DNA of 64,000 bases from an uncultured Gammaproteobacteria bacterium (GTDB lineage: Bacteria > Patescibacteriota > Microgenomatia > UBA8517): NCBI GenBank assembly GCA_964506225.1, contig CAZDKH010000004.1:3262-67261 (forward strand), given 5' to 3'. Positions within the stretch are counted from its first letter, which is position 1; each line of letters opens with the position of its first letter. The notes below the pieces were generated by a model. That model was given only the letters and a program-made list of their open reading frames with translations, did no database searches and was not told where the DNA came from. The position numbers and the translations under genes are program-made. Positions 100-16,072 of the stretch are shown here, in pieces.

Positions 100-924
100 T
101 CAGGAGGGTTGAATTCTAGAAAGAGATTTGAGTAAGAGTTTTCCATTAGCTAAATAGTATTGCCTTTGCACGAAGGTGTTGGGGGTTTCTTCCAGTGGTA
201 CCTTTGTGGGAATACCTATAACCTTAATTGGTTTGGCCACATTAAGTTTATTACATAAAATATTCCTATAAAATCTGTTCGCACGGGACTCTTCTTCATT
301 ACCATCAGGGTGAATTGTGGTATGTCCTGTCCCAACTACCCAAAATGTCTGATCTCCTTGGTTTTGGTTAAAATATTTTATCGCTTCCGAAACCACTTCA
401 AATGCAGCACTTTCCCATTGGTCTGGAATTTGACCCTTTTTCTTCAGTAGTTCGATCTCCTCATTAGATAAATGAAAAGCTCTCCAGTTTTGTAAAAACA
501 CAACTTGTAGAGCGATTTCATTAGGATAATTATTTACTTTATCTTCGCCTTGGATGAATTTGACTGTTTCATTATCCCCTGAGACTTTTATAATACTTGG
601 AAAAGCATTTACTACTGCTCTAACTTTTCTATTTTCAGGATCTATGGCTGCAACAACTAGTTGAGGTTGGTCGGGGTTATCTGGAAAAAGATCAAGTTGA
701 ATATTCTTTTCTTTAATTTCGTGAATCACATCTTTCACATCTTTTTCATTGGGATTTTCGACACTCCACCATAGTCTGGCTAATTTTTGATAATCTTCGT
801 CCGAAGGTGGACCTTTTCGGGAATACAAGACGATTTTGTGGTATGGGTTATGTGTTTCTTTCTTACTTCCAGATTTTTCTGGTAGTTTACCATTATCAGC
901 TTTTTGGTTTTCTTTTCCCTCCAT
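100..924 (-). CDS. hypothetical protein (274 aa), Lys-rich N-terminus, no recognisable catalytic motif
   Basis: Long ORF at the window edge with a WVVGTGHTTIHPDG segment but no motif I can assign. It sits in the accessory region next to VapBC. Confidence 0.45.
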   Translation of the reverse strand: MEGKENQKADNGKLPEKSGSKKETHNPYHKIVLYSRKGPPSDEDYQKLARLWWSVENPNEKDVKDVIHEIKEKNIQLDLFPDNPDQPQLVVAAIDPENRKVRAVVNAFPSIIKVSGDNETVKFIQGEDKVNNYPNEIALQVVFLQNWRAFHLSNEEIELLKKKGQIPDQWESAAFEVVSEAIKYFNQNQGDQTFWVVGTGHTTIHPDGNEEESRANRFYRNILCNKLNVAKPIKVIGIPTKVPLEETPNTFVQRQYYLANGKLLLKSLSRIQPS

Positions 925-1271
925 ATTTTCAAATATACCTCGGAATCTGGCAAAAGTAAAAAGTTAAATAGGGATATTTTATTTGACGGAGAATTTTTTT
1001 GACAATAAAATTGACCTGTAGTAATATTGCGATATGAGTGAAAGTATGAGTAACAGGACTTGTGGAAGTTATTTATGTGAAGGCTTCCAAACAGGTGTTT
1101 GTGCTTTGGCCGAGCAGATTAGATATCAAGCTGAGCATGGCGCGCCTAAAGGTGGCTGGAGTGTGGAAACATGGTAAAACTACATTGAAAGGTGTAGAAA
1201 AGCTTTGCGAGTTTGTGCCAATCCTGGCCAACTTCGGGAAGCAATAGAGAATGTAAAGCCTGAATTTCCAG

Positions 1272-1610
1272 GTGGTGAAAGAGAAAATGCTTGAAACACC
1301 AAAAAGAGGATTTAACTACCAAGGTTTCTTAGAAAATCTATCTAAACCCACTCCGGGACACTGTGATAAGAATGGAAACTTGCTTCCAGAAAATTTTGCC
1401 ATGGAAATTGACAATAGAATCACGGACATCACTTTGCAGCGAAATTTATTTAGAATAGATGATGTTCAAGTACTGGAGTGTTTGAAAAAAGTAAAAGGCT
1501 ATCTTCCTTTTGGGGCTCTTGAAATCTTTAAAAATAAAATTAAAAATTCCTTTGAAAATGGTGATGAAATGGTAAGACAAATCTTTCCGTCTACTTCTGA
1601 ACAAAACTGA
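1272..1610 (+). CDS. hypothetical protein (112 aa)
   Basis: ORF only. Its stop codon lies inside the left copy of the 37-bp direct repeat. Confidence 0.3.
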   Translation: MVKEKMLETPKRGFNYQGFLENLSKPTPGHCDKNGNLLPENFAMEIDNRITDITLQRNLFRIDDVQVLECLKKVKGYLPFGALEIFKNKIKNSFENGDEMVRQIFPSTSEQN

Positions 1611-1640: not shown

Positions 1641-1669
1641 TATTAACTTTCCAGAGTCCTCTGATAATG

Positions 1670-1714
1670 AGTAATACTTATTGACAGAGTAATACTTATT
1701 AGGGTAGTATTACT
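1670..1714 (+). promoter_or_regulatory. vapBC promoter/operator: direct repeats AGTAATACTTATT (1670-1682, 1688-1700) plus inverted half-site AGTATTACT (1706-1714); TTGACA -35 at 1681-1686
   Basis: Repeat and palindrome architecture immediately upstream of the vapB ATG at 1720. This is typical of autoregulated AbrB-type antitoxin operators. Confidence 0.55.
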
Positions 1715-1719
1715 TTATT

Positions 1720-1959
1720 ATGCAAATAGTTTCTGTGACCCAAAAAGGCCAAGTAACAATCCCTAAAAAAATGCGGGATAAACTCGGCATTAAAACAAAT
1801 AACAAAGTGATCATTAAGCAGGCAAAAGATCATATCAAAATTTTACCTCCAGAGCCAGATTTGGTTGATCTTGCAGGAACATTTGTTCCGCGGGCAAACA
1901 AAGGCAAGAGTGCCCTTAAGGCTCGTGAGTATATGCAAAGGCACTACGAGAGGGTTTAA
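1720..1959 (+). CDS. vapB: VapB-like antitoxin, AbrB/SpoVT-type swapped-hairpin DNA-binding domain
   Basis: N-terminal motif QVTIPKKMRDKLGI is typical of AbrB/MazE-fold antitoxins. It is 79 aa and directly abuts the PIN gene. Confidence 0.75.
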   Translation: MQIVSVTQKGQVTIPKKMRDKLGIKTNNKVIIKQAKDHIKILPPEPDLVDLAGTFVPRANKGKSALKAREYMQRHYERV

Positions 1960-2388
1960 GTGATTTACTTTTTGGACACAAATATTTTCCTCAGGGTGCT
2001 TAACAAAAAGGATAATCTAACAGCTCATCTTGAATCTACAGATTTATTAAAAGACATTAAACAGAGAAAGATTAAGGCAGTAACTTCAAACATTGTTCTT
2101 TCAGAGATCGTTTGGACCATGCAGAGATTTTATGAATTTCCAAAGGAAGAAATAGTTTTAGCCTTAAATTCAATATACAACTTATCAATTTCCATGAATG
2201 ATAACTTCCAGACTGCAAGAGCAATCAAATTATTTAAAACTATGAATGTAAAGTTTGTTGATTGTTTGATTGCTTCAATACCGCAAATTCATGAATGTAA
2301 ATGGACCATTGTTTCATATGATAAGGATTTTGATAAGTTGGGAGTGATAAGAAAAGAACCAAAAGAGGTTACTAGAGGCCTTAATTGA
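1960..2388 (+). CDS. vapC: VapC-like PIN-domain ribonuclease toxin
   Basis: Starts IYFLDTNIF (PIN acidic motif) and has further conserved acidic residues (DCLIA, YDKDFD). GTG start immediately after the vapB stop. Confidence 0.75.
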   Translation: MIYFLDTNIFLRVLNKKDNLTAHLESTDLLKDIKQRKIKAVTSNIVLSEIVWTMQRFYEFPKEEIVLALNSIYNLSISMNDNFQTARAIKLFKTMNVKFVDCLIASIPQIHECKWTIVSYDKDFDKLGVIRKEPKEVTRGLN

Positions 2389-2420
2389 TTTACAGCTTCA
2401 CAGAGGGGCCCATGGTAGAT
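2388..2420 (-). pseudogene. diverged partial duplicate of the rplA 3' end
   Basis: The 33-bp sequence GATTTACAGCTTCACAGAGGGGCCCATGGTAGA matches 4181-4213 with 3-4 mismatches. Its minus-strand translation is ..KSTMGPSVKL* against the L1 C-terminus ..TSTMGPSVKLQIN*. Confidence 0.7.
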
Positions 2421-2466
2421 TTGGCGAAAGAATTTAACTACCAAATTTTCCCACCCACTTCAAGAT

Positions 2467-2504
2467 TAAACTGATTACCTGCAAATGCGGAAACGACAAG
2501 AAGA
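2467..2504. repeat. right copy of the about 37-bp imperfect direct repeat
   Basis: See 1603-1640. Confidence 0.7.
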
Positions 2505-2546
2505 ACTAGGCAGTGAGAACCCATCCTTTGATGAGAGAAAGGTACG

Positions 2547-3020
2547 CTAGGAAGTTGTTGGGATTATTATCAAAGCTTCCAAAAAACTTTTGGCAATTGA
2601 GGCAGCAAGTTGCATACTTCCATTCAAATCACGTGGGGGAATGACCTTTGGAACGCGATAACTAACTTCATAAACAGGAAGATCTCTGTTTTTGCCAAGC
2701 ATGGGTTTTTTGGTGATTTCTATTTTTAATTCTTTCCCCTCTATTGAACTTTCCATTGTGACTTTTTTGATAATACCTTTTTGAGTCCTTTCAACTCTAA
2801 CATAAATACGAGTCCTTTCTTTTTCTTCCCACCTCCATGCAATAGTAGGTCCTTTTCCAACAAACGTCCCCTTTTCCACAAACACACCCTCTTTGTAGTT
2901 CAGCGAAATTGGCACCGATAACCGGATTTCTTCCCTAATCGCTACCGGAGATTTTTTTAAGGAATTCTGCCATATCATTAATATCTTTTTGTTGCAAAGA
3001 TCCCGGCCGAAGACTGTCAT
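2547..3020 (-). CDS. hypothetical protein (157 aa)
   Basis: ORF inside the islet bounded by the rplA 3'-end copies. No recognisable motif. Confidence 0.4.
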   Translation of the reverse strand: MTVFGRDLCNKKILMIWQNSLKKSPVAIREEIRLSVPISLNYKEGVFVEKGTFVGKGPTIAWRWEEKERTRIYVRVERTQKGIIKKVTMESSIEGKELKIEITKKPMLGKNRDLPVYEVSYRVPKVIPPRDLNGSMQLAASIAKSFLEALIIIPTTS

Positions 3021-3541
3021 AGTATATTGCCACAGGCAGAAGATTTTCTCTCTTACATACTACATACATAAAGAGGGTTCTTGCTGTTGTGCGGATCAAA
3101 ATTCGGGTCTATAGTTTGTTCAACCAGACTTTTTATAGTTCTTAATTGTTTTACTTCAAAAGTTTCTCTAGATCTAGGCATTTGCCGAATTATAGCAGAA
3201 AACACACACTGGAGTTGATGTATTTGTAAACAACCTTCACATTTTTCTGGGTTAGCTTGTTTGTGGATAGAGTGTAATACATTTACCTAACCAGAAAACA
3301 GCCTGAACAGATTTTCCAAAAAGTACCCGTCCTATACAAAAATTTGATTTTTGTTGAAGAAATTCTATAATAGCAGCAATACAAAAAAGGTGGTTTTGGG
3401 TATGTTAGAAAAAGTTGTAAGAAATTGGACAAAAACATAAGATTGTGTTATAAATTCAGAACAAAAGGTATTTTTTTTATCTCTAATTTTTCTTACTAAG
3501 GAGTAAATTATGAGTTTTAACTTTCGTAGTTATCATTAATT

Positions 3542-4174
3542 ATGAATGAAAGAGAACAGGGAAGACTACGGAGAATAAGACAAGCGGCAGCTTTATTTTT
3601 ATTGGCTGCAGTATTGGGGTATCAGTTAAGGGTTATTTGGGAAAGATCAGAAGATACTCCAGCAAGTGAGCCATGTCCCCCATGTCCACCCACAAGTATT
3701 CCTGCACCCTCAGGAGGAAGGGAAACACAAGTGATCCCAGAGCAGATTTGGAAAATTTATGAATTAATTTATTCTTTGGCAGGTAAGGGTTTTATTGTTC
3801 ATGTTCCATATCCAAATACACTTAATTTTATCCCTGGAGTTACAGAATTAGATGGAAAAGTATATGACCTTTTTTTCAATCCTCCGGAGTTGCAAGTTCT
3901 TGGAGATGTTTTATATATGCTTAATGAAGAAGGGATTAGCGGTTCAGAAATTGCGCAGAGGTTTGGATCTTCTAAAGATGTGAGAGTTGCGGTGACTGAT
4001 AGAAGAAGACACCTGCCCTATCTTTATCCCTCGGAGGGGGAAGGGTTAATTCCATTTTTTCTTCCAATTTATGATAAAGGAGTAGGCATTCTTATTGCTC
4101 CAGAAGGGGAGGTTACAATTGTAATTTACACGGATGGAAATTGGGTAGAAGGAATAAGGGAGTTTGTTCCATAA
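3542..4174 (+). CDS. membrane-anchored hypothetical protein (210 aa); N-terminal TM helix, Pro/Cys-rich linker CPPCPPTSIPAP, then a globular domain
   Basis: Hydrophobic segment AALFLLAAVLGY, locally higher GC than its surroundings, and convergent with rplA, abutting it with zero spacing. Confidence 0.5.
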   Translation: MNEREQGRLRRIRQAAALFLLAAVLGYQLRVIWERSEDTPASEPCPPCPPTSIPAPSGGRETQVIPEQIWKIYELIYSLAGKGFIVHVPYPNTLNFIPGVTELDGKVYDLFFNPPELQVLGDVLYMLNEEGISGSEIAQRFGSSKDVRVAVTDRRRHLPYLYPSEGEGLIPFFLPIYDKGVGILIAPEGEVTIVIYTDGNWVEGIREFVP

Positions 4175-4945
4175 CTAGTTTATTTGCAGCTTCACAGAGG
4201 GACCCATGGTGGAGGTCAGATAGGCTTTAAGAATTTGGTTTTTAAAAGCTACCAAGACAGCTTCTATATTTTCGATAAGTTTTTTATCGTCTTGACTGAA
4301 TTTTCCAACAGTGGTGTGAATAAGGGGAGCGTTTTTTTCTGTTTTCAAAGTCAGAGAGTTTGCGGAAAACTTTTTTGCATCATCTTCGGATTTAATTAGG
4401 GTTTGATTTTTTGGATTTGGCATAAGCCCCTTTGGACCCAAAATTTTTGCAAAAGGAACTAATTTTGGCATAAAATCGGGAGTTGCTAAAAGAACGTCAA
4501 AATCAATTTCTCCTGTCTCCAGTTTCTTTATAGTCGCTTCAGATGCAATCTCTATTTTTTTTTGTTTTCCCCATCTGTGAGGCAGTTCTATTGTTTCTGA
4601 TAGACCTTCTTTTTTGACCACCAGGTGAAGCTCAATAGTTGCGTCAAATTTTGAGTACGAGGTTTCTTTGACCAGTTTAACAGCCTCGGGAAGCCCATAA
4701 AGTTTATTTTTATCAATCTTTGCCTTTGCTTCAAGATATTTTTTGCCTCTTGTTTTTACCTTTTTAGCTTTTTTAACAACTTTTTCCTCCTCGGTTTTGG
4801 GGGCAGACGGCAATGGTTCTGCTTCAACAATTTTAATTCTTTGTCCGCCTTTTAGGCCAGAAATATGAACTTTGTCAGGCTTTTTGACTTCTTTTTTGCT
4901 TTTTTGTGTCTCGTCTCCGATAAAAACTGTTTTTGTTTTTCCCAT
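4175..4945 (-). CDS. rplA: 50S ribosomal protein L1 with a Lys-rich N-terminal extension
   Basis: KFDATIELHL and LMPNPK motifs; downstream of rplK in the canonical order. Confidence 0.9.
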   Translation of the reverse strand: MGKTKTVFIGDETQKSKKEVKKPDKVHISGLKGGQRIKIVEAEPLPSAPKTEEEKVVKKAKKVKTRGKKYLEAKAKIDKNKLYGLPEAVKLVKETSYSKFDATIELHLVVKKEGLSETIELPHRWGKQKKIEIASEATIKKLETGEIDFDVLLATPDFMPKLVPFAKILGPKGLMPNPKNQTLIKSEDDAKKFSANSLTLKTEKNAPLIHTTVGKFSQDDKKLIENIEAVLVAFKNQILKAYLTSTMGPSVKLQIN

Positions 4946-5049: not shown

Positions 5050-5472
5050 TTATTCAATGGTAACACCCATAGAACGTGCTGTTCCTTCTACGATTTTTAT
5101 TGCAGCTTCTAAGTCATCAGTATTTAAATCAGCCATTTTTTCTTTGGCAATTTCTTCAACTTGCGTCTTGGTTAATTTTCCAACTTTGTCCCGATTGGGT
5201 GCGCCTGACCCTTTTTGCAAATTTATTGCCTTTTTAATCATCTCAGTTACTGGAGCTTTTTTTATTTCAAAATCAAACGATCTGTCCTCATAAATGGTAA
5301 TAACCGCAGGAACTATCTGGCCTTTCATAGATGATGTTTTATCATTGTAGGCCTTTACAAAATCCATGATAGCCACCCCGTGTTGGCCTAAAGCGGGGCC
5401 AAGGGGAGGAGCTGGAGTGGCCTCTCCTGCGGGCAAATTGACTTTGATAACTGTTTTTACTTTTTTTGGCAT
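5050..5472 (-). CDS. rplK: 50S ribosomal protein L11
   Basis: [17 protein letters not shown] motif; 140 aa. Confidence 0.95.
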
Positions 5473-5599: not shown

Positions 5600-6499
5600 A
5601 TGGCGAATGAATTGTCTATAGTCATTGTTAGTTTTAATGTTAAAAAGCTTCTTTTGGACTGCCTTGAATCCATCTATAAAAATAAAAAAGACACTAACAA
5701 CTGGCAAATAATAGTTGTTGATAACGCATCTACTGATGGTTCTGTTGAGGCTGTCGAGAAAAAATTTCCAAAGGTTAATCTCATCAAAAGCCCAAAAAAT
5801 CTTGGTTATGCAAGGGGCAATAACCTTGCGGTTTCTGTTATCAACTCCGACTATGTTCTTTTCTTAAACCCGGACACAATTATAAAAGGTGATGTTATTC
5901 AAAAGACTCTTAATTTTCTTAAGGAAAATCCAAAAGTTGGGGCTGTAACCTGTAAAGTTCTTTTACCCGATGGCAAGCTTGATTACTCCTGTAAGAGAGG
6001 CTTTCCTGCCCCATGGAGCGCTTTTTGTTATTTCACCGGACTTGCCAAGGTTTTCCCCAATTCAAAATTTTTTGCAGGCTATACCGCAACCTATCTTGAC
6101 AGTGACACCACAAACGAAGTTGAGTGTATCAGCGGAACATTTTTTATGGTAAGAAGGTTAGCGGCCAGGGAGGTTGGCTGGTGGGACGAGGATTATTTTT
6201 GGAATGGCGAGGATATTGAATTCTGTTTTCGGCTAAGAGAAAAGGGCTGGAAAATCTATTATTACCCCAAAGGTGAAATTGTTCATTTTAAAGGTTCTTC
6301 ATCCGGACTTTGGAAAAGTGCCAAAGTCTCTGTTTCTAAAGAAGTTAAACTTCGCTCGGCCAAAGCGGGAATTGAGGCAATGAGGATTTTTTACGAAAAG
6401 CATTATCTAAAAAATACCCCTTTTGTTTTTCGCAAAATTGTTCTTCTTGGTATAAATCTTTTGGAAAAGGTTAGGTTATTAAAAATAAAATTAAGCTAA
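5600..6499 (+). CDS. family 2 glycosyltransferase (GT-A)
   Basis: [10 protein letters not shown] and NLGYARGNN motifs; later DxD. Confidence 0.8.
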   Translation: MANELSIVIVSFNVKKLLLDCLESIYKNKKDTNNWQIIVVDNASTDGSVEAVEKKFPKVNLIKSPKNLGYARGNNLAVSVINSDYVLFLNPDTIIKGDVIQKTLNFLKENPKVGAVTCKVLLPDGKLDYSCKRGFPAPWSAFCYFTGLAKVFPNSKFFAGYTATYLDSDTTNEVECISGTFFMVRRLAAREVGWWDEDYFWNGEDIEFCFRLREKGWKIYYYPKGEIVHFKGSSSGLWKSAKVSVSKEVKLRSAKAGIEAMRIFYEKHYLKNTPFVFRKIVLLGINLLEKVRLLKIKLS

Positions 6500-6500
6500 C

Positions 6501-7457
6501 ATGGACTGTTCGATAGTTATTCTTTCTTTTAATACAAAGGATGTTACCAGAAGATGTTTGACTTTCGTCAAAAAAGCTGTCGATTATTGTCAAAAAAATT
6601 TAAAAAACAAGTTTGAGGTAGTGGTTGTTGACAATGCTTCGACTGATGGTTCGGTTGAGATGATTCTCAAAAACTATCCTTGGGTGAAACTTATCAAAAG
6701 CCCCCAGAACTTGGGTTTTGCTAAGGGTAATAATCTGGGGATGAAAAGGACAAAATACCCCCTCATTCTTCTTATTAACTCGGACACCTTTTTAGAAGAG
6801 AAAAGTCTTTTTGCGAGTCTGAAGTTTATGAAAGGTAATCCCGACTGCGGAGTAATGGGCTGTAAACTTCTCTATGAGAATGGGGTATTGCAGCCAAGCG
6901 CCGGTTTTCTACCAAACCCCTTGAGGATTTTTGCCTGGATGTTTGGAATAGATAAGATTCATATTCTCTCAAATATCATTGGACCTTTTCATCCCATGAG
7001 TCAGCGTTTTTTTACTCAAAAGAAAGAGTTCGGCTGGATAATGGGAGCATTTATGCTTTTAAGAAGAGAGGTTTATAAAAAAACCGGGGGCTTTGATGAA
7101 AATTATTTTATGTATACCGAAGAAGTTGAGTGGTGTAAAAGGATAAAAGAGGCCGGATTCAAAATTTTCTACACGCCTTATATCAAAGCAATACACCTGG
7201 GGAGAGCAAGCAGTAAATTTGACACAAGCCTTTCTCTAACAAAAGAGCTGGAAGGAGTCTTGTATTATTTTCAAAAACACTATCCTTCCTATCTTTTTTG
7301 GGCGCGAATAAATATCTTTTTGGGAACGCTTCTGCGACTTGTTGCCTTTTATCTCTTGGGAGAAAAAAAGAAAGCTTTTATTTACAAAAAAGCTCTTGCT
7401 ATATCTTTACGACCTGTAGGAAATCAAGCTCAACCGGAGTTTCGCGGCCAAAAATAG
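6501..7457 (+). CDS. family 2 glycosyltransferase, tandem paralogue of the preceding gene
   Basis: [10 protein letters not shown] and NLGFAKGNN motifs. Separated from the preceding gene by 2 bp. Confidence 0.8.
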
Positions 7458-8034
7458 AAACCAAGACCTTGACTTTGCCTTTTTCCTCATCCACTTCATG
7501 AATAGTTCCCAGAAAATCCGCAAAAGGACCGTCCGTGATTTTAACAGCCTCGCCTGGGGTGAGTTTGGTTTTAAAACGAGGAGCCGGGGAGGAAATAAAT
7601 TTTTGAATATTTTTTACCTCTGTGTCAGAGAGGGGAGAAGGTTTGTTACCAGCTCCAACAAAACCTGTAATTCCGGGTGTTGTTCTTACAGCCAGCCAGC
7701 TGTCGTCTGTGACAACCATCTTGACAAGCAGATAGCCGGGAAAAATTTTTTCTTTGACTGTGGCTTTTTTGCCCTGTCTTATAACAACACGGTCTTGGGT
7801 TGGGATTAGAAGTTCAAAGACTTTATCTTTTAAGCCCATGGACTCAATTCTTTGTCGAAGTGTTTCGGCAACTCTTACTTCGTGACCGCTGGCTGTGTGG
7901 ACAACATACCAGTGTGCATTTTCAGGAGCATCCTTGTTAATCAAAATATACCCCGGAATTTTCTTTTTTCCAGTGCCCCGTTCCTCAACCCCTTTGTCTT
8001 GTTTTTGAACTGCCTGAGAGGTGTTTTTATTCAT
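7399..8034 (-). CDS. nusG: transcription termination/antitermination factor NusG
   Basis: NGN domain ([12 protein letters not shown]) and C-terminal KOW ([22 protein letters not shown]); secE-nusG-rplK synteny. Confidence 0.9.
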
Positions 8035-8035
8035 C

Positions 8036-8287
8036 TTATTTTTTTATCAAAACTTCCAAGAGTTTAGTCATTGCAAGGTCTAGTCCACCCAAATAAATGC
8101 CAACCACTCCCGAGATAAGAATTACAAGCAGAGTCAATTTGACCACATCAGTTTTTTTTGGCCAGACTACTTTTGAAAGCTCTAGACGAACCTCCTTAAA
8201 ATAAGACAGGGTTGGCAAACCAAAAGAAAACCTTATTGGCAATTTCGTTGCTGGAATTTTCATCCTTACGGGAACAAATTGTAGCAC
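8036..8287 (-). CDS. secE: preprotein translocase subunit SecE
   Basis: 83 aa with a C-terminal TM helix ([18 protein letters not shown]). Directly upstream of nusG. Confidence 0.85.
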
Positions 8288-9487: not shown

Positions 9488-10201
9488 TCATGTCTTTAAC
9501 CTTTCCTTTGCCCTCTTATATACTTCTAACACCGAAATATTGTCAGGCATTTGGGGATGATGACTCATGGCAGAAATCACATCTTCCTCTCGGAAAGAAC
9601 CAGATAAAAGCAATCCCAAATGTTCTATATCACTTTGTCTAACTTGTCGTTTGGGATTTTTCACAAGACCTGAAACCCTAATGGCCCAAGTGGCAATAGT
9701 ATATGGAAGAGATTTTACCCAAAAAAAATATTCTTGTCCTTTTGAGTTTTTAATCGGGACTAGTACAGTGGGAACAACACTGCCATTTTTCAAACGATAA
9801 GAATTTTTGGAACCTTTTATTTTTTTAGCTTCCACAAATTGTAATTCTAGCCTTCTGAAATTCCTCTGATCTAGCAAAACATTGTATTCCAATCTATCAC
9901 ATGTCGTTTTAAGTAAATGTAAATTTAGGCCCGACACTGAAAGATTTTCCATTATAAAGGCAACTTTTTTGATACTTTTAGACAAATTAGACGTAAAAAC
10001 ATTCGTATCTATATCATTGTGTTTTAGTTCATAGCCCGTAAGTGCTTCGATAGCGTAACTTCCGCTTACCACTAGCCGTATCCCCCCAACATTATTAAAG
10101 TGAGAACTTACTGCAGAAAGTAACTGCAAATCAATATTCCTTATTGTTATAAAATCGGCTTTATTTTTTTCCCCTACTGGTATCTCGGTCTTTCTTATCA
10201 T
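9488..10201 (-). CDS. Pol-beta-superfamily nucleotidyltransferase of the LnuA / ANT(2'')-Ia family (237 aa)
   Basis: VSGSYAIEALTGYELKHNDIDT matches the GGWGVDVLTGKQQREHRDIDI (LnuA) and GGGWAIDARLGRVTRKHDDIDL (ANT(2'')) active-site segment, i.e. the GS...DxD NTase signature. Confidence 0.65.
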   Translation of the reverse strand: MIRKTEIPVGEKNKADFITIRNIDLQLLSAVSSHFNNVGGIRLVVSGSYAIEALTGYELKHNDIDTNVFTSNLSKSIKKVAFIMENLSVSGLNLHLLKTTCDRLEYNVLLDQRNFRRLELQFVEAKKIKGSKNSYRLKNGSVVPTVLVPIKNSKGQEYFFWVKSLPYTIATWAIRVSGLVKNPKRQVRQSDIEHLGLLLSGSFREEDVISAMSHHPQMPDNISVLEVYKRAKERLKT

Positions 10202-10226
10202 TTTCCAATATTTATTTTATTAATCT

Positions 10227-11417
10227 TTATATATTCGTATCCCTATCTAAACCCAACCTATCAAGAATAAGCTGGCGATATTTATCGGAATTCAAGAAGG
10301 GATTCAGATCGATTGGTACTCTAAGTCCTCCATTTGAAGTGGTTCCATATCCCTTAGTAACCGGAGAATCCAATGCTTCCCAATTTACTAATTTCATTAG
10401 GCTCTCAATTCTTATTTTGGCTTCGTTAAAGTTTTCAACTGGAGTTACAAGATCGACTTTTTCAGAACTTACTGCTTGCTTCATCGGAATATACTTTTCT
10501 CCAGAGACGATTTTTCTGCATATTTCAGCTACTTTATATCGCAAAGCACATTGTAGTAAAAAATCAGATGCTACTTCGGTAGCCCACGGATACTTTTGCA
10601 GTATCTGTTTGGCCACTTTATTTGCAGTTTTAGGTTTATAAACAAGAGACTTGCGAGTAAAAGCATCTAAGTCATTAACTGACTTAGCGGCTCTAAAGTG
10701 TCTTAACCGTGCCTGAATGTGATCAGTAATATCTAACCTCGCAAAGTGAAGAAAAGCAGATTTAAGAACTACCTTTCTATCCTTTTCTGGCACTAGACTA
10801 TTCATTCGACTATCGGATGTGATATTTTGACAACCAAACATCACCCCAATAATACTTGTGTCTACCAAAAGCAAGCTTCCTTTTAGCCTTTTTCTCGGTC
10901 TGTGTTTATAGGTAAATTCCCTTGCTAAAGGATGTTTGTCAGCTTCAAAAATACGCATAAAGACTATTTGTTGTGGACTTAACTTAATTTTGGATTCCGT
11001 AATTATTTCTAAAGGATAAGTTGCATAATTCGACCCAACTACAGGCTTATCGCCTTCATTCCACAAATTAGCCAATGCCATGGGAAGTCTTGAGATATCT
11101 GCGTCAGTTAGGAAGATTCGCTTATATCCTTCCTCGGCAGCAAGTTGTCCAATTGCTTTTTCGGCATTTACTATTCCAGGAGGAGTTTTTATAAACACGA
11201 TGTCGGCATTATATAAAGAACGATTTATGTGATAGGGAATTGGATTTTCTTGAGAGATTTTTGGGCCGTTTACTCCTACCACTATCTTTGCATCAATATT
11301 TAATTTGTGAAGGCATTCATCAAGGTTTTTTAGACAAGCTTCAAGTACTTCTACGCCCTCACCCTCATAAAAAGGGACTCCAACAATTGTTCTTTTATCA
11401 GTTATCCGCTTATTCAT
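10227..11417 (-). CDS. GT-A-fold nucleotide-diphospho-sugar-transferase-like protein (396 aa) with a long C-terminal extension
   Basis: Begins with a GT2-like beta strand and YEGEG where GT2 has YNE, and has a DxD motif (FLTDADIS). The C-terminal 200 aa has no recognisable motif. Confidence 0.45.
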   Translation of the reverse strand: MNKRITDKRTIVGVPFYEGEGVEVLEACLKNLDECLHKLNIDAKIVVGVNGPKISQENPIPYHINRSLYNADIVFIKTPPGIVNAEKAIGQLAAEEGYKRIFLTDADISRLPMALANLWNEGDKPVVGSNYATYPLEIITESKIKLSPQQIVFMRIFEADKHPLAREFTYKHRPRKRLKGSLLLVDTSIIGVMFGCQNITSDSRMNSLVPEKDRKVVLKSAFLHFARLDITDHIQARLRHFRAAKSVNDLDAFTRKSLVYKPKTANKVAKQILQKYPWATEVASDFLLQCALRYKVAEICRKIVSGEKYIPMKQAVSSEKVDLVTPVENFNEAKIRIESLMKLVNWEALDSPVTKGYGTTSNGGLRVPIDLNPFLNSDKYRQLILDRLGLDRDTNI

Positions 11418-13545: not shown

Positions 13546-14702
13546 TCAAACTGCCTTTTGAAGAAGAATTTCTGGATCTTCAATAATCTGGAGAGCTTCT
13601 TTTATCCACGGTATATCTTCTTTCTCCACTGTCCATCTTGTTTCTGGTGGTCTCCAGATACTTCTGTCTGATTTATCAACGTCAAAAACATAAAATCCTG
13701 TTGCGCCATATGCACGGGATAAAAACATGGCCTAAAAGAGCCAATCACCACGTCTTTGCAAATATGCGCTATTTGCTTCTGTAACCCTGAAAGCAACCTT
13801 TCCTCCAAGGCGCCTTTGAAGAAAATCTAAATTATTCTCAAAGATTTCTCTCGGCGTGCAGTTGCCTCTTAAAAAAGGTGGTAAATCGCCAACCTCGTTA
13901 ATTTCCTGTAAAGGAACAAAATAATTGTACCCTTCGATTCCCAATGCAAAGCTGACAAATTTATGTCCTGAGTATTCATCTGGTGTGAGGATATAATCTT
14001 GAAAATTCTCGTTTGACCACAATGAAGGGACCAAAATCACTTTGTGTCTGTTTTTTTCAAAAATATAGGTTGCTTTTCTAAAAAGCCCAAAAAACTTTCT
14101 TAATCTTGCCTTTTGGAAATGCCGTAAAGATTGTAGGAAAAAGCTTCACTTGGAAAATTGGTGTTGGCTTCAAACCAAGGTCTTAATTCAAAAATTTTTA
14201 GAAAAGGTTTTGAATTTTCCTCAACCTGATATAAGCCTTCTTCCCAGTAGGGTAAATTCTCTTTTGAAAAGGGATGACCATACCAGTTTCTTCTGTAGGA
14301 GGTGACGCTTAGATTATTTATCCCACCTTTTTTATCAACTTCAAGCATCCAGGGAATTAAAATTTGCTCACAAAAATTCCTGTCCATAAGCTGGTTAAAA
14401 CTTACAAAAATTCCGACCACAATTCTGTCAATTTCTAAAATTTTTCTAATCTCATCAATTCTCTCTAGGGCAGATTCGGTATCGGCAGGATTTTCGCGGT
14501 GAGGATATATCCCTTGAACAAAATCTTTATTTTGATACCTTTTCAACCTCTCTACCAACCAGTTTGCGTCTAGCGAATAGTCTTTGCCTTCTTGAAACTT
14601 TGAGAAAATGAGGGGGGAGAAAACAAATGATGTTCCGGCAAGTAATTTGAGGCCGAATCTCAAAAATTTCCTTCTTGTTAGTCTTTCTGGCCCATTTGTC
14701 AT
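13546..14702 (-). pseudogene. Tat-signal secreted hydrolase-like protein split into three consecutive ORFs (14702-14100, 14040-13732, 13728-13546) by two frameshifts
   Basis: Twin-arginine signal RRKFLRFGLKLLAG. The three ORFs follow each other in different frames, and the junction at 14041-14099 reads through protein-like in the shifted frame across poly-T/poly-A runs. Confidence 0.55.
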
Positions 14703-14830
14703 TTTTGGGCAATAGTAGAGAAATTTGTTTAGTTTCTAGATGGTCTTTATTTATTATACTACAGGTCTTTTGTTGCCCTTCGGCTATTAATCGAATAAGA
14801 TAGTAATAAGGAAAGTAAGTTTCTTGGAGA

Positions 14831-16072
14831 ATGTTTAAAAGAACCAGAACAGTATTTCTTAAAGACCCTTCATTTCCAAAAGTGATAACACTTTCGCTGA
14901 TTTTGTTTTTTATCTTTCTGGCTGATGCGATTTTATCCTTCTGGGCGCCTACTTTTATTGAGGATTCTTTTGAAAGCCCATTTTTAATGGGGCTTATCAT
15001 GAGCTTTTCCTCAATAGTGGGTTTTGGTGCGGATGTTATCCTTCCACAAATCATTAAGGGAATTTCGGTTAGAAAACTTTTGTTTTTGTCGATTATATTA
15101 AGTTTAATTTTTGCCCTGAGTCTTTTTAGCGCCACATTTAGGCCATACTTGGCCATTTTTCTTTTGGCCATGGCGATTTGGGGAGTATATTACGAGTTTT
15201 TGGGTTTTGCTAATCAGCAGTTTGTTTCAGATTCGGTTCCTTTTAAGTCTCACTCTACAGCTTGGGCGATTATCAGTGTTTTTAAGAATCTGGCCTATTT
15301 TTTGGGCCCGCTTTTTGCCGGCTGGTTACTTTATTTGAGTGAGGGTTTTCTGGTTTCAGGTGTAATCTTTTTCTTGCTTATTGCCCTCCTTGTTTTTCTG
15401 ACTTCCTATAAAAATCACGCCAGACCCCTGGAAATTGACGTAACCCAAGTTAATCTGGGAAGTGAACTGGAACACTGGCTAGTTCTTTTTAGGAGAGTCT
15501 GGCCGATGGTGACAATGAGCCTTGTTTTGGGTTTGATTGATGCCACATTTTGGACAACTGGGGCAGTTTGGACTGAAAAGTTAAGTCAACAAAGCTTTTT
15601 TGGTAGTTTCTTTTTGCCTTTTTATACTCTGCCCTCGCTTTTTTTGGGATTTGTGGTAGCCAAGTGGGGAGTATTCTCTGGTAAAAAAAGAGTTGCGATA
15701 GTAAGTCTTTTGGCAGGCGGAATTTTACTTTTGTTTCTTGGAATAAGCGGGGCAATATGGCTTCAGTTATTTTTAGTGCTTCTTATAGCAACTTCCTTGT
15801 CGGTGACCTACCCTATGGTGGATGCTGTTTATTCTGATATTTTGGCAAGAATGGGCAGAAAGAGAAAACACCTTATCGGTCTTTCAAACTCAACAATAAG
15901 CATTTCCTATATTATTGGCCCTTCGTTGGCTGGATATGTAGCAGAGCAAATTGGGGAGAAATTGACCTTCTCTGTTTTGGGAATACTAACCTTTTTTGTG
16001 GCGGCATTTCTTTTTTTTACTACTCCAAAAAAGCTGCATCTACCCCAAAGAATTATCAAAATGTGGGACTAA
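14831..16072 (+). CDS. MFS-type transporter (413 aa, about 12 TM helices)
   Basis: Hydrophobicity pattern throughout. Confidence 0.6.
   Translation: MFKRTRTVFLKDPSFPKVITLSLILFFIFLADAILSFWAPTFIEDSFESPFLMGLIMSFSSIVGFGADVILPQIIKGISVRKLLFLSIILSLIFALSLFSATFRPYLAIFLLAMAIWGVYYEFLGFANQQFVSDSVPFKSHSTAWAIISVFKNLAYFLGPLFAGWLLYLSEGFLVSGVIFFLLIALLVFLTSYKNHARPLEIDVTQVNLGSELEHWLVLFRRVWPMVTMSLVLGLIDATFWTTGAVWTEKLSQQSFFGSFFLPFYTLPSLFLGFVVAKWGVFSGKKRVAIVSLLAGGILLLFLGISGAIWLQLFLVLLIATSLSVTYPMVDAVYSDILARMGRKRKHLIGLSNSTISISYIIGPSLAGYVAEQIGEKLTFSVLGILTFFVAAFLFFTTPKKLHLPQRIIKMWD

Follow-up and report, generated by a model that had tools for sequence, protein, structure and literature searches.

Does a second copy of the 3' end of a ribosomal protein gene, found a short way downstream of the gene itself, mark the attachment site of an integrative element, or is it the trace of another kind of recombination? 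The question is raised by a 64-kb stretch of DNA (the window, by which we mean the whole stretch analysed) from a contig whose host belongs to Candidatus Woesebacteria (Candidate Phyla Radiation (CPR)/Microgenomates), and in which the end of rplA, the gene for ribosomal protein L1, occurs twice. The source contig (115 kb; L001/L002) continues past window base 1. The initial annotation had explained the repeat by a site-specific insertion at the rplA 3' end, in what it took to be the first case of rplA serving as an attachment site. On balance, we favour the view that the rplA copy marks the novel joint left by a duplicative recombination inside a 4.7-kb island at the boundary between rplK-rplA and rplJ-rplL. 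The locus is a new example of known processes, namely an operon-boundary island with a recombination joint linked to a mobile vapBC toxin-antitoxin (TA) cassette.

Repeat of the rplA 3' end

The window contains an intact rplA gene (4175–4945, minus strand; 256 aa; Pfam Ribosomal_L1, E = 3.3e-22), the product of which has 2790 homologues in a search across 5.8e9 proteins, the nearest non-self homologue being 70% identical. Self-comparison of the 5-kb island revealed that the last 12 codons and the stop codon of this functional gene (copy f, 4176–4213, minus strand) recur as a stub, rplA' (copy f', 2382–2419, minus strand), which overlaps the stop codon of vapC by 7 nt. The two copies form a direct repeat of 38 nt with 33/38 (87%) identical positions (E = 3.8e-6). 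Read on the rplA strand, the stub encodes STMGPSVKL*IN*, with a nonsense codon that arose by a CAA to TAA change. The initial annotation had recognized both the copy and its premature TAA; its coordinates for the copy, 2388–2420, were one base out of register, and the 33-nt part that it described contains four mismatches.

The direct repeat was real and far above chance. The local-alignment score of the rplA/rplA' pair was 28, compared with 8–16 for the best matches to the rplA tail among 30 related loci, and the 24-nt core of the repeat was present in exactly two copies in the window, where none is expected. Because the core occurs only twice in 64 kb, the copy is not a dispersed repeat, a possibility that the initial annotation had itself raised. 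No occurrence of the core was detected in collections of viral and metagenome contigs; as the metagenome set lacks the source contig, this means only that it contains no other carrier. The island sequence was the same in four independent assemblies (JGI, ENA, Logan) made with different pipelines, except for one single-nucleotide polymorphism (SNP), and an assembly chimera is excluded on this ground. This SNP, the sole island polymorphism among the four assemblies, lies at window position 3141 (L003 offset 1805 from the rplA start) in a 521-nt intergenic stretch.

The homology between rplA and rplA' terminates exactly at the rplA stop codon, and, as judged from these comparisons, the copy is a genuine recombination scar from the exact rplA 3' end. 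Five of the six differences between rplA and rplA' fall at codon position 3 (p = 0.018 versus neutrality). This bias indicates that the two ends diverged mostly while both were coding, as would two alleles or orthologues rather than a copy decaying in place. An extension of rplA' by six further codons ("LNSFAK") showed only 7/18 nt identity and was treated as unproven, and a 24-nt likeness between the vapB/vapC junction and the vapC/rplA' junction was at chance level (E = 0.55).

Fusion of the rplA stub to a truncated copy of ORF112

A second repeat pair adjoins the rplA stub. Its outer copy (1578–1640) consists of the last 11 codons of the open reading frame (ORF) ORF112 and 30 nt downstream, and matches 2442–2504 over 63 nt with 76% identity (E = 2.7e-8); an extension of this tail repeat past 1640 was not significant (p = 0.18). 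Furthermore, 1307–1328, within ORF112, matches 2429–2450 at 19 of 22 positions. These matches define a remnant, ORF112' (2429–2504, plus strand), which is truncated at its 5' end at about codon 12, the first ~11 codons being gone, carries an in-frame internal deletion of 250 nt between two CAA codons, and ends in a stop codon at 2472–2474 followed by the 30-nt downstream tail. The intact ORF112 (1272–1610, plus strand; 112 aa from GTG, 107 aa from an ATG at 1287) is located 1.1 kb further out, on the far side of the vapBC cassette. It is an ORFan with a host-like codon score, and yielded self matches only among 5.8e9 proteins. In a search of a small database, the only detectable relative of ORF112 (32% over 75 aa, E = 1.4e-4) was found at L028 7224–7439, between nusG and rplK in a different Woesebacteria genome.

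On the plus strand, the order is ORF112, tail, vapBC and rplA', followed by ORF112', its tail, ORF157, an intergenic region, ORF210 and rplA. The two repeat pairs thus share order and orientation, with intact outer copies and inner ones that are truncated and fused 9 nt apart. The 9 nt of the joint (2420–2428) match neither rplA nor ORF112, being either filler or sequence diverged past recognition, and the joint is not a shared k-mer. The divergence of the two pairs is 13% (rplA) and 24% (ORF112 and tail). Since the outer copies are intact and the inner ones truncated and fused, the topology is that of a tandem duplication or a Campbell-type single crossover, in which both unit ends appear twice in the same order with the inner ones joined.

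Tandem duplication, Campbell-type insertion and homology-facilitated illegitimate recombination all leave intact outer copies and truncated inner copies at a novel joint. The locus resembles such joints in this respect and in its few unassigned joint nucleotides. It differs from plain duplication or Campbell joints in that the interiors of its two units are completely different: vapBC and ORF157-ORF210 showed no relatedness, and no remnants were detected. This difference implies either that two diverged versions of the locus were the partners or that cargo was exchanged afterwards. A simple attachment-site model does not predict the fusion of rplA' to ORF112', whereas a duplication or single-crossover joint does.

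The vapBC cassette and its relatives

Between the tail of ORF112 and the stub of rplA are located vapB (1720–1959, plus strand), which encodes a MazE/AbrB-type antitoxin (Pfam MazE_antitoxin, PF04014, 9.3e-10), and vapC (1960–2388, plus strand), which encodes a PIN toxin (PF01850, 7.1e-13); the two genes overlap at their start and stop codons. A promoter/operator region (1668–1719, plus strand) with the promoter-like site TTGACA-18-TAGTAT precedes vapB. In this region, a 14-nt direct repeat, GAGTAATACTTATT, is present twice, and an inverted partner, AGTATTACT, overlaps the promoter-like site; these repeats are likely an autoregulatory operator, and nucleotide-level conservation of the upstream region extends to several unrelated vapBC loci. 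With paired genes and a promoter/operator of its own, the vapBC locus is predicted to be an intact type II TA cassette. VapBC modules of this type are described as selfish, horizontally moving and region-stabilising (Van Melderen & Saavedra De Bast 2009, PMC2654758). The cassette in the window is like the known modules in having an intact PIN toxin, an AbrB/MazE-type antitoxin and its own operator, and in being widespread in unrelated contexts; unlike in that precedent, a stabilising role for the duplication in the window is something that we infer.

A set of 80 related vapBC loci from metagenomes (40–54% amino-acid identity) was compared with that of the window. In 73 of them vapC was paired with vapB, and none of the 80 adjoined rplA, rplJ or any island ORF. 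The nucleotide homology of vapBC to other loci spans 1668–2366, which is exactly what lies between the tail of ORF112 and the stub of rplA, and for this reason vapBC with its promoter is, at the level of sequence, a discrete and widely exchanged module.

Locus-specific direct repeats (score >=25) flanked vapBC in 6 of 60 usable loci, compared with 2 of 413 control positions (p = 7.6e-5); the pair that flanks vapBC in the window scores 33. Where these repeats were coding, they were duplicated ends of neighbouring genes (L117, L110 and L084). In L117, vapBC lies between a 25-codon fragment and a full copy of a YqeY-like gene (4398–4471 and 5252–5326), and 13 of the 17 differences between the two 5'-end copies are at position 3 (10 synonymous and 4 non-synonymous codons), so that these copies look like diverged alleles rather than the products of an in-place duplication. 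In L110, a membrane-protein gene has its first 15 codons duplicated around vapBC. In L084, the cassette is directly upstream of rpmE (ribosomal protein L31), and 23 nt of the rpmE 5' end (IHPKYY) are duplicated (897–919 and 1650–1672), which makes this the second ribosomal protein gene end duplicated around cassettes of the vapBC family of the window. When codon-position differences were pooled with those of the rplA pair, 21 of 30 were at position 3 (p = 4e-5). The location of ~10% of related vapBC loci between diverged gene-end duplicates with a position-3 bias could be a footprint of cassette exchange between uncultured lineages.

Arrays of direct repeats of 66–92 nt with 82–98% identity were observed at three further loci (L092 3441–5506, L126 4503–6360 and L147 5347–7149). 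Those of L092 and L126 separate successive TA cassettes (repeat-TA-repeat-TA-repeat), a layout reminiscent of integrons. Cassettes of the integron type end in conserved imperfect palindromes resembling attC and have an IntI integrase nearby.

Contents and composition of the islet between the rplA copies

The contents of the islet between the two rplA copies were as initially annotated: ORF157, a stretch of 521 nt without a convincing ORF, and ORF210. ORF157 (2547–3020, minus strand) is an ORFan of unassigned function with a host-like codon score, and a full HMMER search of 1.84e9 representatives returned self matches only. The 521-nt intergenic region (3021–3541) between the divergent ORF157 and ORF210 contains promoter-like sites, and no convincing ORF, RNA family (Rfam) or pseudogene trace was found in it, so that the covariance-model scan suggested earlier for this segment gave no RNA family. 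A U4 match at L002 14769–14850 (25 bits, gathering score 46) was regarded as spurious. ORF210 (3542–4174, plus strand), whose stop codon abuts that of rplA with zero spacing, is likewise an ORFan with only self matches, and is predicted to have an N-terminal helix or transmembrane anchor and a CPPCPP linker; its AlphaFold2 model, built with no alignment, had a pLDDT of 44.8, too low to be of use, and was confident for residues 1–35 only. A stretch at 1194–1220 resembling the ORF210 C-terminus was not significant in BLAST/tblastn and was dropped.

The composition of the islet provided no foreign signal. ORF210, described initially as a GC-richer gene, has a GC content of 40.0% (25% at third codon positions), which is inside the range of host genes. 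The GC content of the islet as a whole was 37.1%, compared with a window mean of 38.5 ± 2.0%, and its tetranucleotide distance was at the 66th percentile; the k-mer and GC comparison proposed in the initial annotation thus described a host-like segment. Codon-usage scores were host-like for ORF157, ORF210, ORF112, ORF274 and vapBC.

The gap between rplA and rplJ as a variable slot

The initial annotation had stated that rplJ and rplL were absent downstream of rplA and replaced by the islet. This was an artefact of the window edge: on the source contig, rplJ and then rplL are present (L002 15471–16439), the rplJ start being 4.7 kb past the rplA stop codon and 526 nt outside the window. The 4.7-kb island between rplA and rplJ contains, in order, ORF210, ORF157, the rplA stub, vapC, vapB, ORF112, ORF47, ORF274 and ORF83. 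Its outer stretch within the window (100–1177) comprises ORF274 (100–924, minus strand) and ORF47 (1034–1177, plus strand), and ORF83, an L10-leader-like element and rplJ-rplL are situated beyond window base 1. No homologue of ORF274 was found in viral contigs.

The L10-leader-like element just before rplJ (L002 15343–15469) matched Rfam RF00557 with 29.8 bits, below the gathering score of 44. The leader contains AAGACAG...CCGAGG motifs, a terminator-like hairpin and a promoter-like TATAAT, and the same motifs precede rplJ in L074, the closest relative. Because rplJ has its own promoter-like site and an L10-leader-like element, rplK-rplA and rplJ-rplL are predicted to be separate transcription units, with a gap between them that tolerates insertions.

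Comparison of about 30 Woesebacteria loci supported this variability. The distance from rplA to rplJ ranged from 73 bp to >5028 bp and that from nusG to rplK from 6 to 3568 bp, while rplK to rplA was always tight (2–245 bp). Insertions of 0.8 to >5 kb downstream of rplA were present in at least 13 loci, and their cargo was unrelated between genomes, including AbiEii/AbiEi pairs, a PIN/RHH pair, an AAA+DUF4143 ATPase, IS200-like Y1 transposases, and sigma-70-like, HD, APH-like and cohesin/dockerin proteins. No integrase was detected among the 20 largest ORFs scanned in the gaps of these relatives, and none of the about 30 other loci carried a repeat of its own rplA tail. With conserved flanks and variable length and content, the rplA|rplJ boundary is an accessory-gene hotspot. 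Hotspots of horizontal gene transfer are known to lie between conserved core genes of the chromosome. The boundary described here is like them in its conserved flanks (rplA and rplJ) and its variable, often TA- or defence-type cargo; unlike the usual cases, the variable DNA occupies the two operon boundaries within the classical ribosomal cluster secE-nusG-rplKA-rplJL.

A comparison of the locus with related genomes provided no empty site, as no relative exceeds 70% rplA identity and the nearest one, L074, has a 1.37-kb gap with three unrelated ORFs. All that L074 and the island have in common is the 5' end of the gene divergent from the rplJ leader. The ribosome-binding site and first codons of ORF83 (L002 15160–15205) share 81% identity with their counterparts in a 230-aa ORF of L074 (6266–6312), and ORF83 may be a shortened orthologue of this ORF and the oldest resident of the island. 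In another relative, L026, two IS200-like Y1 transposase paralogues (10090–10791 and 14545–15219; 49% identical) lie downstream of rplA, and rplJ was not found within 8 kb.

A proposed course of events

Since the unit interiors are unrelated, the recombining partners were probably two diverged versions of the same hotspot, unless the cargo turned over later. One version of the locus would have read ORF112-tail-vapBC-rplA, and the other ORF112-tail-ORF157-ORF210-rplA. In the proposed event, a donor segment from a diverged relative or a sister chromosome, beginning at about codon 12 of ORF112, ending 38 nt short of the rplA end and carrying vapBC snug against rplA, would have recombined with the resident locus of the second version via the ORF112/tail homology; the mirror-image event via the 38-nt rplA homology would give the same product. 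Formally, this would be a single crossover in which the resident copy pairs with a second copy of the locus that is circularised (or misaligned). The rplA stub would then have arrived as the downstream tail of the vapBC cassette, and ORF112' would later have lost its 250 nt and the stub gained its nonsense codon. Looping-out between the repeats would delete vapBC, and addiction to the TA pair, an effect established for TA modules at large (PMC2654758), may help the arrangement persist. Neither a dedicated integrase nor an attachment site would be required. That a second version existed, which way the event ran and that vapBC stabilises the product are what we infer from the arrangement. The end of homology at the rplA stop codon is expected under this proposal, because two versions of the locus share the conserved gene and differ in cargo.

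Several points weigh against the proposed duplicative recombination. The interiors of the two units are not homologous, vapBC and ORF157-ORF210 being unrelated, and the second version of the locus is in no database, the nearest relative having a 70%-identical rplA and unrelated cargo. A repeat of the exact 3' end of a ribosomal protein gene is also the footprint of tyrosine integrases (PMC4701971), and the recombinase negative presented below does not extend to ~36 kb of the contig and the remaining genome. The position-3 bias in rplA derives from six differences only, and an in-situ duplication with one constrained copy would give p~0.1 by our estimate. Among related vapBC loci, only ~10% have flanking repeats, some of these are arrays or REP-like (resembling repetitive extragenic palindromes; L112) rather than gene ends, and the loci are partly redundant (L090 and L092).

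If the duplicative recombination is the true origin of the repeat, the locus would be an ordinary but clean case of accessory DNA accruing at operon boundaries in the most conserved gene cluster of streamlined CPR genomes, and would suggest that pieces of earlier neighbouring genes can travel with a TA cassette, which can also stabilise a duplication. It would also remove the claim of a first rplA attachment site.

Site-specific integration and other explanations

The explanation that survives best beside duplicative recombination is site-specific integration at rplA, which we consider unlikely. Under it, the 1.75-kb segment would be an integrase-less element, or a decayed remnant of the cis-mobilizable element (CIME) kind, inserted into the rplA 3' end, which it would have regenerated, with the 38-bp repeats as attL/attR and an integrase lost or acting in trans. 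Known elements offer some support for this. In streptococci, the tyrosine integrases of elements that are either integrative and conjugative (ICEs) or integrative and mobilizable (IMEs) target the 3' ends of rplL, rpsI and rpmG (Ambroset et al. 2016, PMC4701971); the direct repeats of ICEs at rplL, guaA and tRNA genes measure 12–54 bp, and rplA is not among the targets listed (PMC4701971). The 38 nt found here are within this range, and the locus is like these streptococcal elements in that the repeat is an exact ribosomal protein gene 3' end from a target gene that stays intact. The position-3 bias would also fit a gene end carried by an element under selection, and ORF210 directly abuts the repeat.

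The flanking repeats from a target gene 3' end (38 nt, 33/38) were, however, the only feature of an integrative element that we found. A Pfam scan for recombinases covered the island ORFs, the called genes within ±10 kb, window positions 15–37 kb, and 20 ORFs of >=180 aa from 37–64 kb. No tyrosine or serine recombinase, of the kind that the initial annotation had suggested seeking, was detected in the DNA so scanned, and the same ORFs gave no relaxase, phage or defence matches. Likewise, the island proteins had no PHROG or PADLOC match except for the antitoxin, and the islet DNA matched nothing in phage and plasmid collections; together with the host-like composition, this leaves the segment with no mobility, phage, plasmid or compositional signature of foreign DNA. 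The same attachment site did not recur in the about 30 Woesebacteria loci with insertions, nor in the viral and metagenome sets. Unlike the streptococcal ICEs and IMEs, the locus showed neither an integrase nor genes for conjugation or mobilisation, the site did not recur in relatives, and the distal repeat is joined to the truncated copy of a gene from the flank.

This fusion would require two related elements in tandem and a third attachment site, and no third rplA copy was found upstream of ORF112, at the outer boundary (p = 0.77). CIMEs and the tandem accretion arrays of the ICESt1/3 family of S. thermophilus are integrase-less DNA between attachment-site-like repeats, with such a site at every boundary. 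The locus is similar in having integrase-less DNA, attachment-site-like repeats and two tandem units; it differs in that the outer boundary lacks such a site and the ORF112/tail end is all that its two units have in common. The recombination scar from the exact rplA 3' end and the differing DNA between rplA and rplJ thus remain from the initial interpretation, and the reading of the scar as a site-specific attachment site, and with it rplA as a first target of this kind, is unsupported: there is no recombinase in the scanned DNA, the repeat does not recur, the composition is host-like, and the stub is fused to ORF112'.

Somewhat less probable again is a tandem duplication in situ, in one genome, of a short ancestral unit (ORF112, its tail and the rplA end), followed by separate gains of cargo immediately behind the rplA stop codon, one unit acquiring vapBC and the other ORF157-ORF210. 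This would produce the same topology as the single crossover between two locus versions, it would place the gains at a position demonstrably prone to insertion, and the 13% and 24% divergence of the repeats is compatible with a single old event. It would need three events instead of one, however, and two of these would be insertions that hit the same nucleotide position with respect to the rplA stop codon. The position-3 bias fits it less well (p~0.1 by our estimate, versus 0.018 for neutrality), and the analogous L117 pair, with 13/17 differences at position 3, points to an allelic origin.

A broader and more doubtful proposal is that vapBC cassettes of the family in the window are minimal mobile units of the CPR, which would insert into or beside the ends of conserved genes (rplA, rpmE and the yqeY-like gene) and bring a replacement end with them; the rplA repeat would then be one instance of an as yet undescribed insertion mechanism that regenerates gene ends, integrase-independent or trans-acting, with rplA as a new target. 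Finally, an explanation by chance similarity, by a dispersed repeat or by the chimeric assembly of two strains, which the shortness of the repeat (38 nt) and the origin of the data in metagenome assemblies might suggest, is effectively refuted by the E value of 3.8e-6, the score of 28 against <=16 in controls, the two copies in 64 kb where none is expected, and the identical sequence in four assemblies from different pipelines with a joint that is not a shared k-mer.

Neighbouring genes and minor observations

The partner gene of rplA, rplK (ribosomal protein L11; 5050–5472, minus strand; identified by Pfam), lies upstream of it in a tight operon with a 108-nt gap. The L1 proteins of Woesebacteria (~255–270 aa) have a lysine-rich N-terminal extension, and the Pfam Ribosomal_L1 match covers only residues 139–249 of the rplA product of the window (4175–4945). 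Further upstream are nusG (7399–8034, minus strand) and secE (8036–8287, minus strand). nusG is convergent with the second of two glycosyltransferase ORFs (6501–7457, plus strand), with an overlap of 59 nt; the convergent pairs nusG/glycosyltransferase and rplA/ORF210 both leave no space for terminators between the genes. The two glycosyltransferase genes, of family GT2 and on the opposite strand, occupy the nusG|rplK gap of the window (5600–7457). This gap is a second variable slot in Woesebacteria (6–3568 bp; L005–L032, L070 and L074), and in L074 it contains a MazE-PIN pair together with three unknown ORFs.

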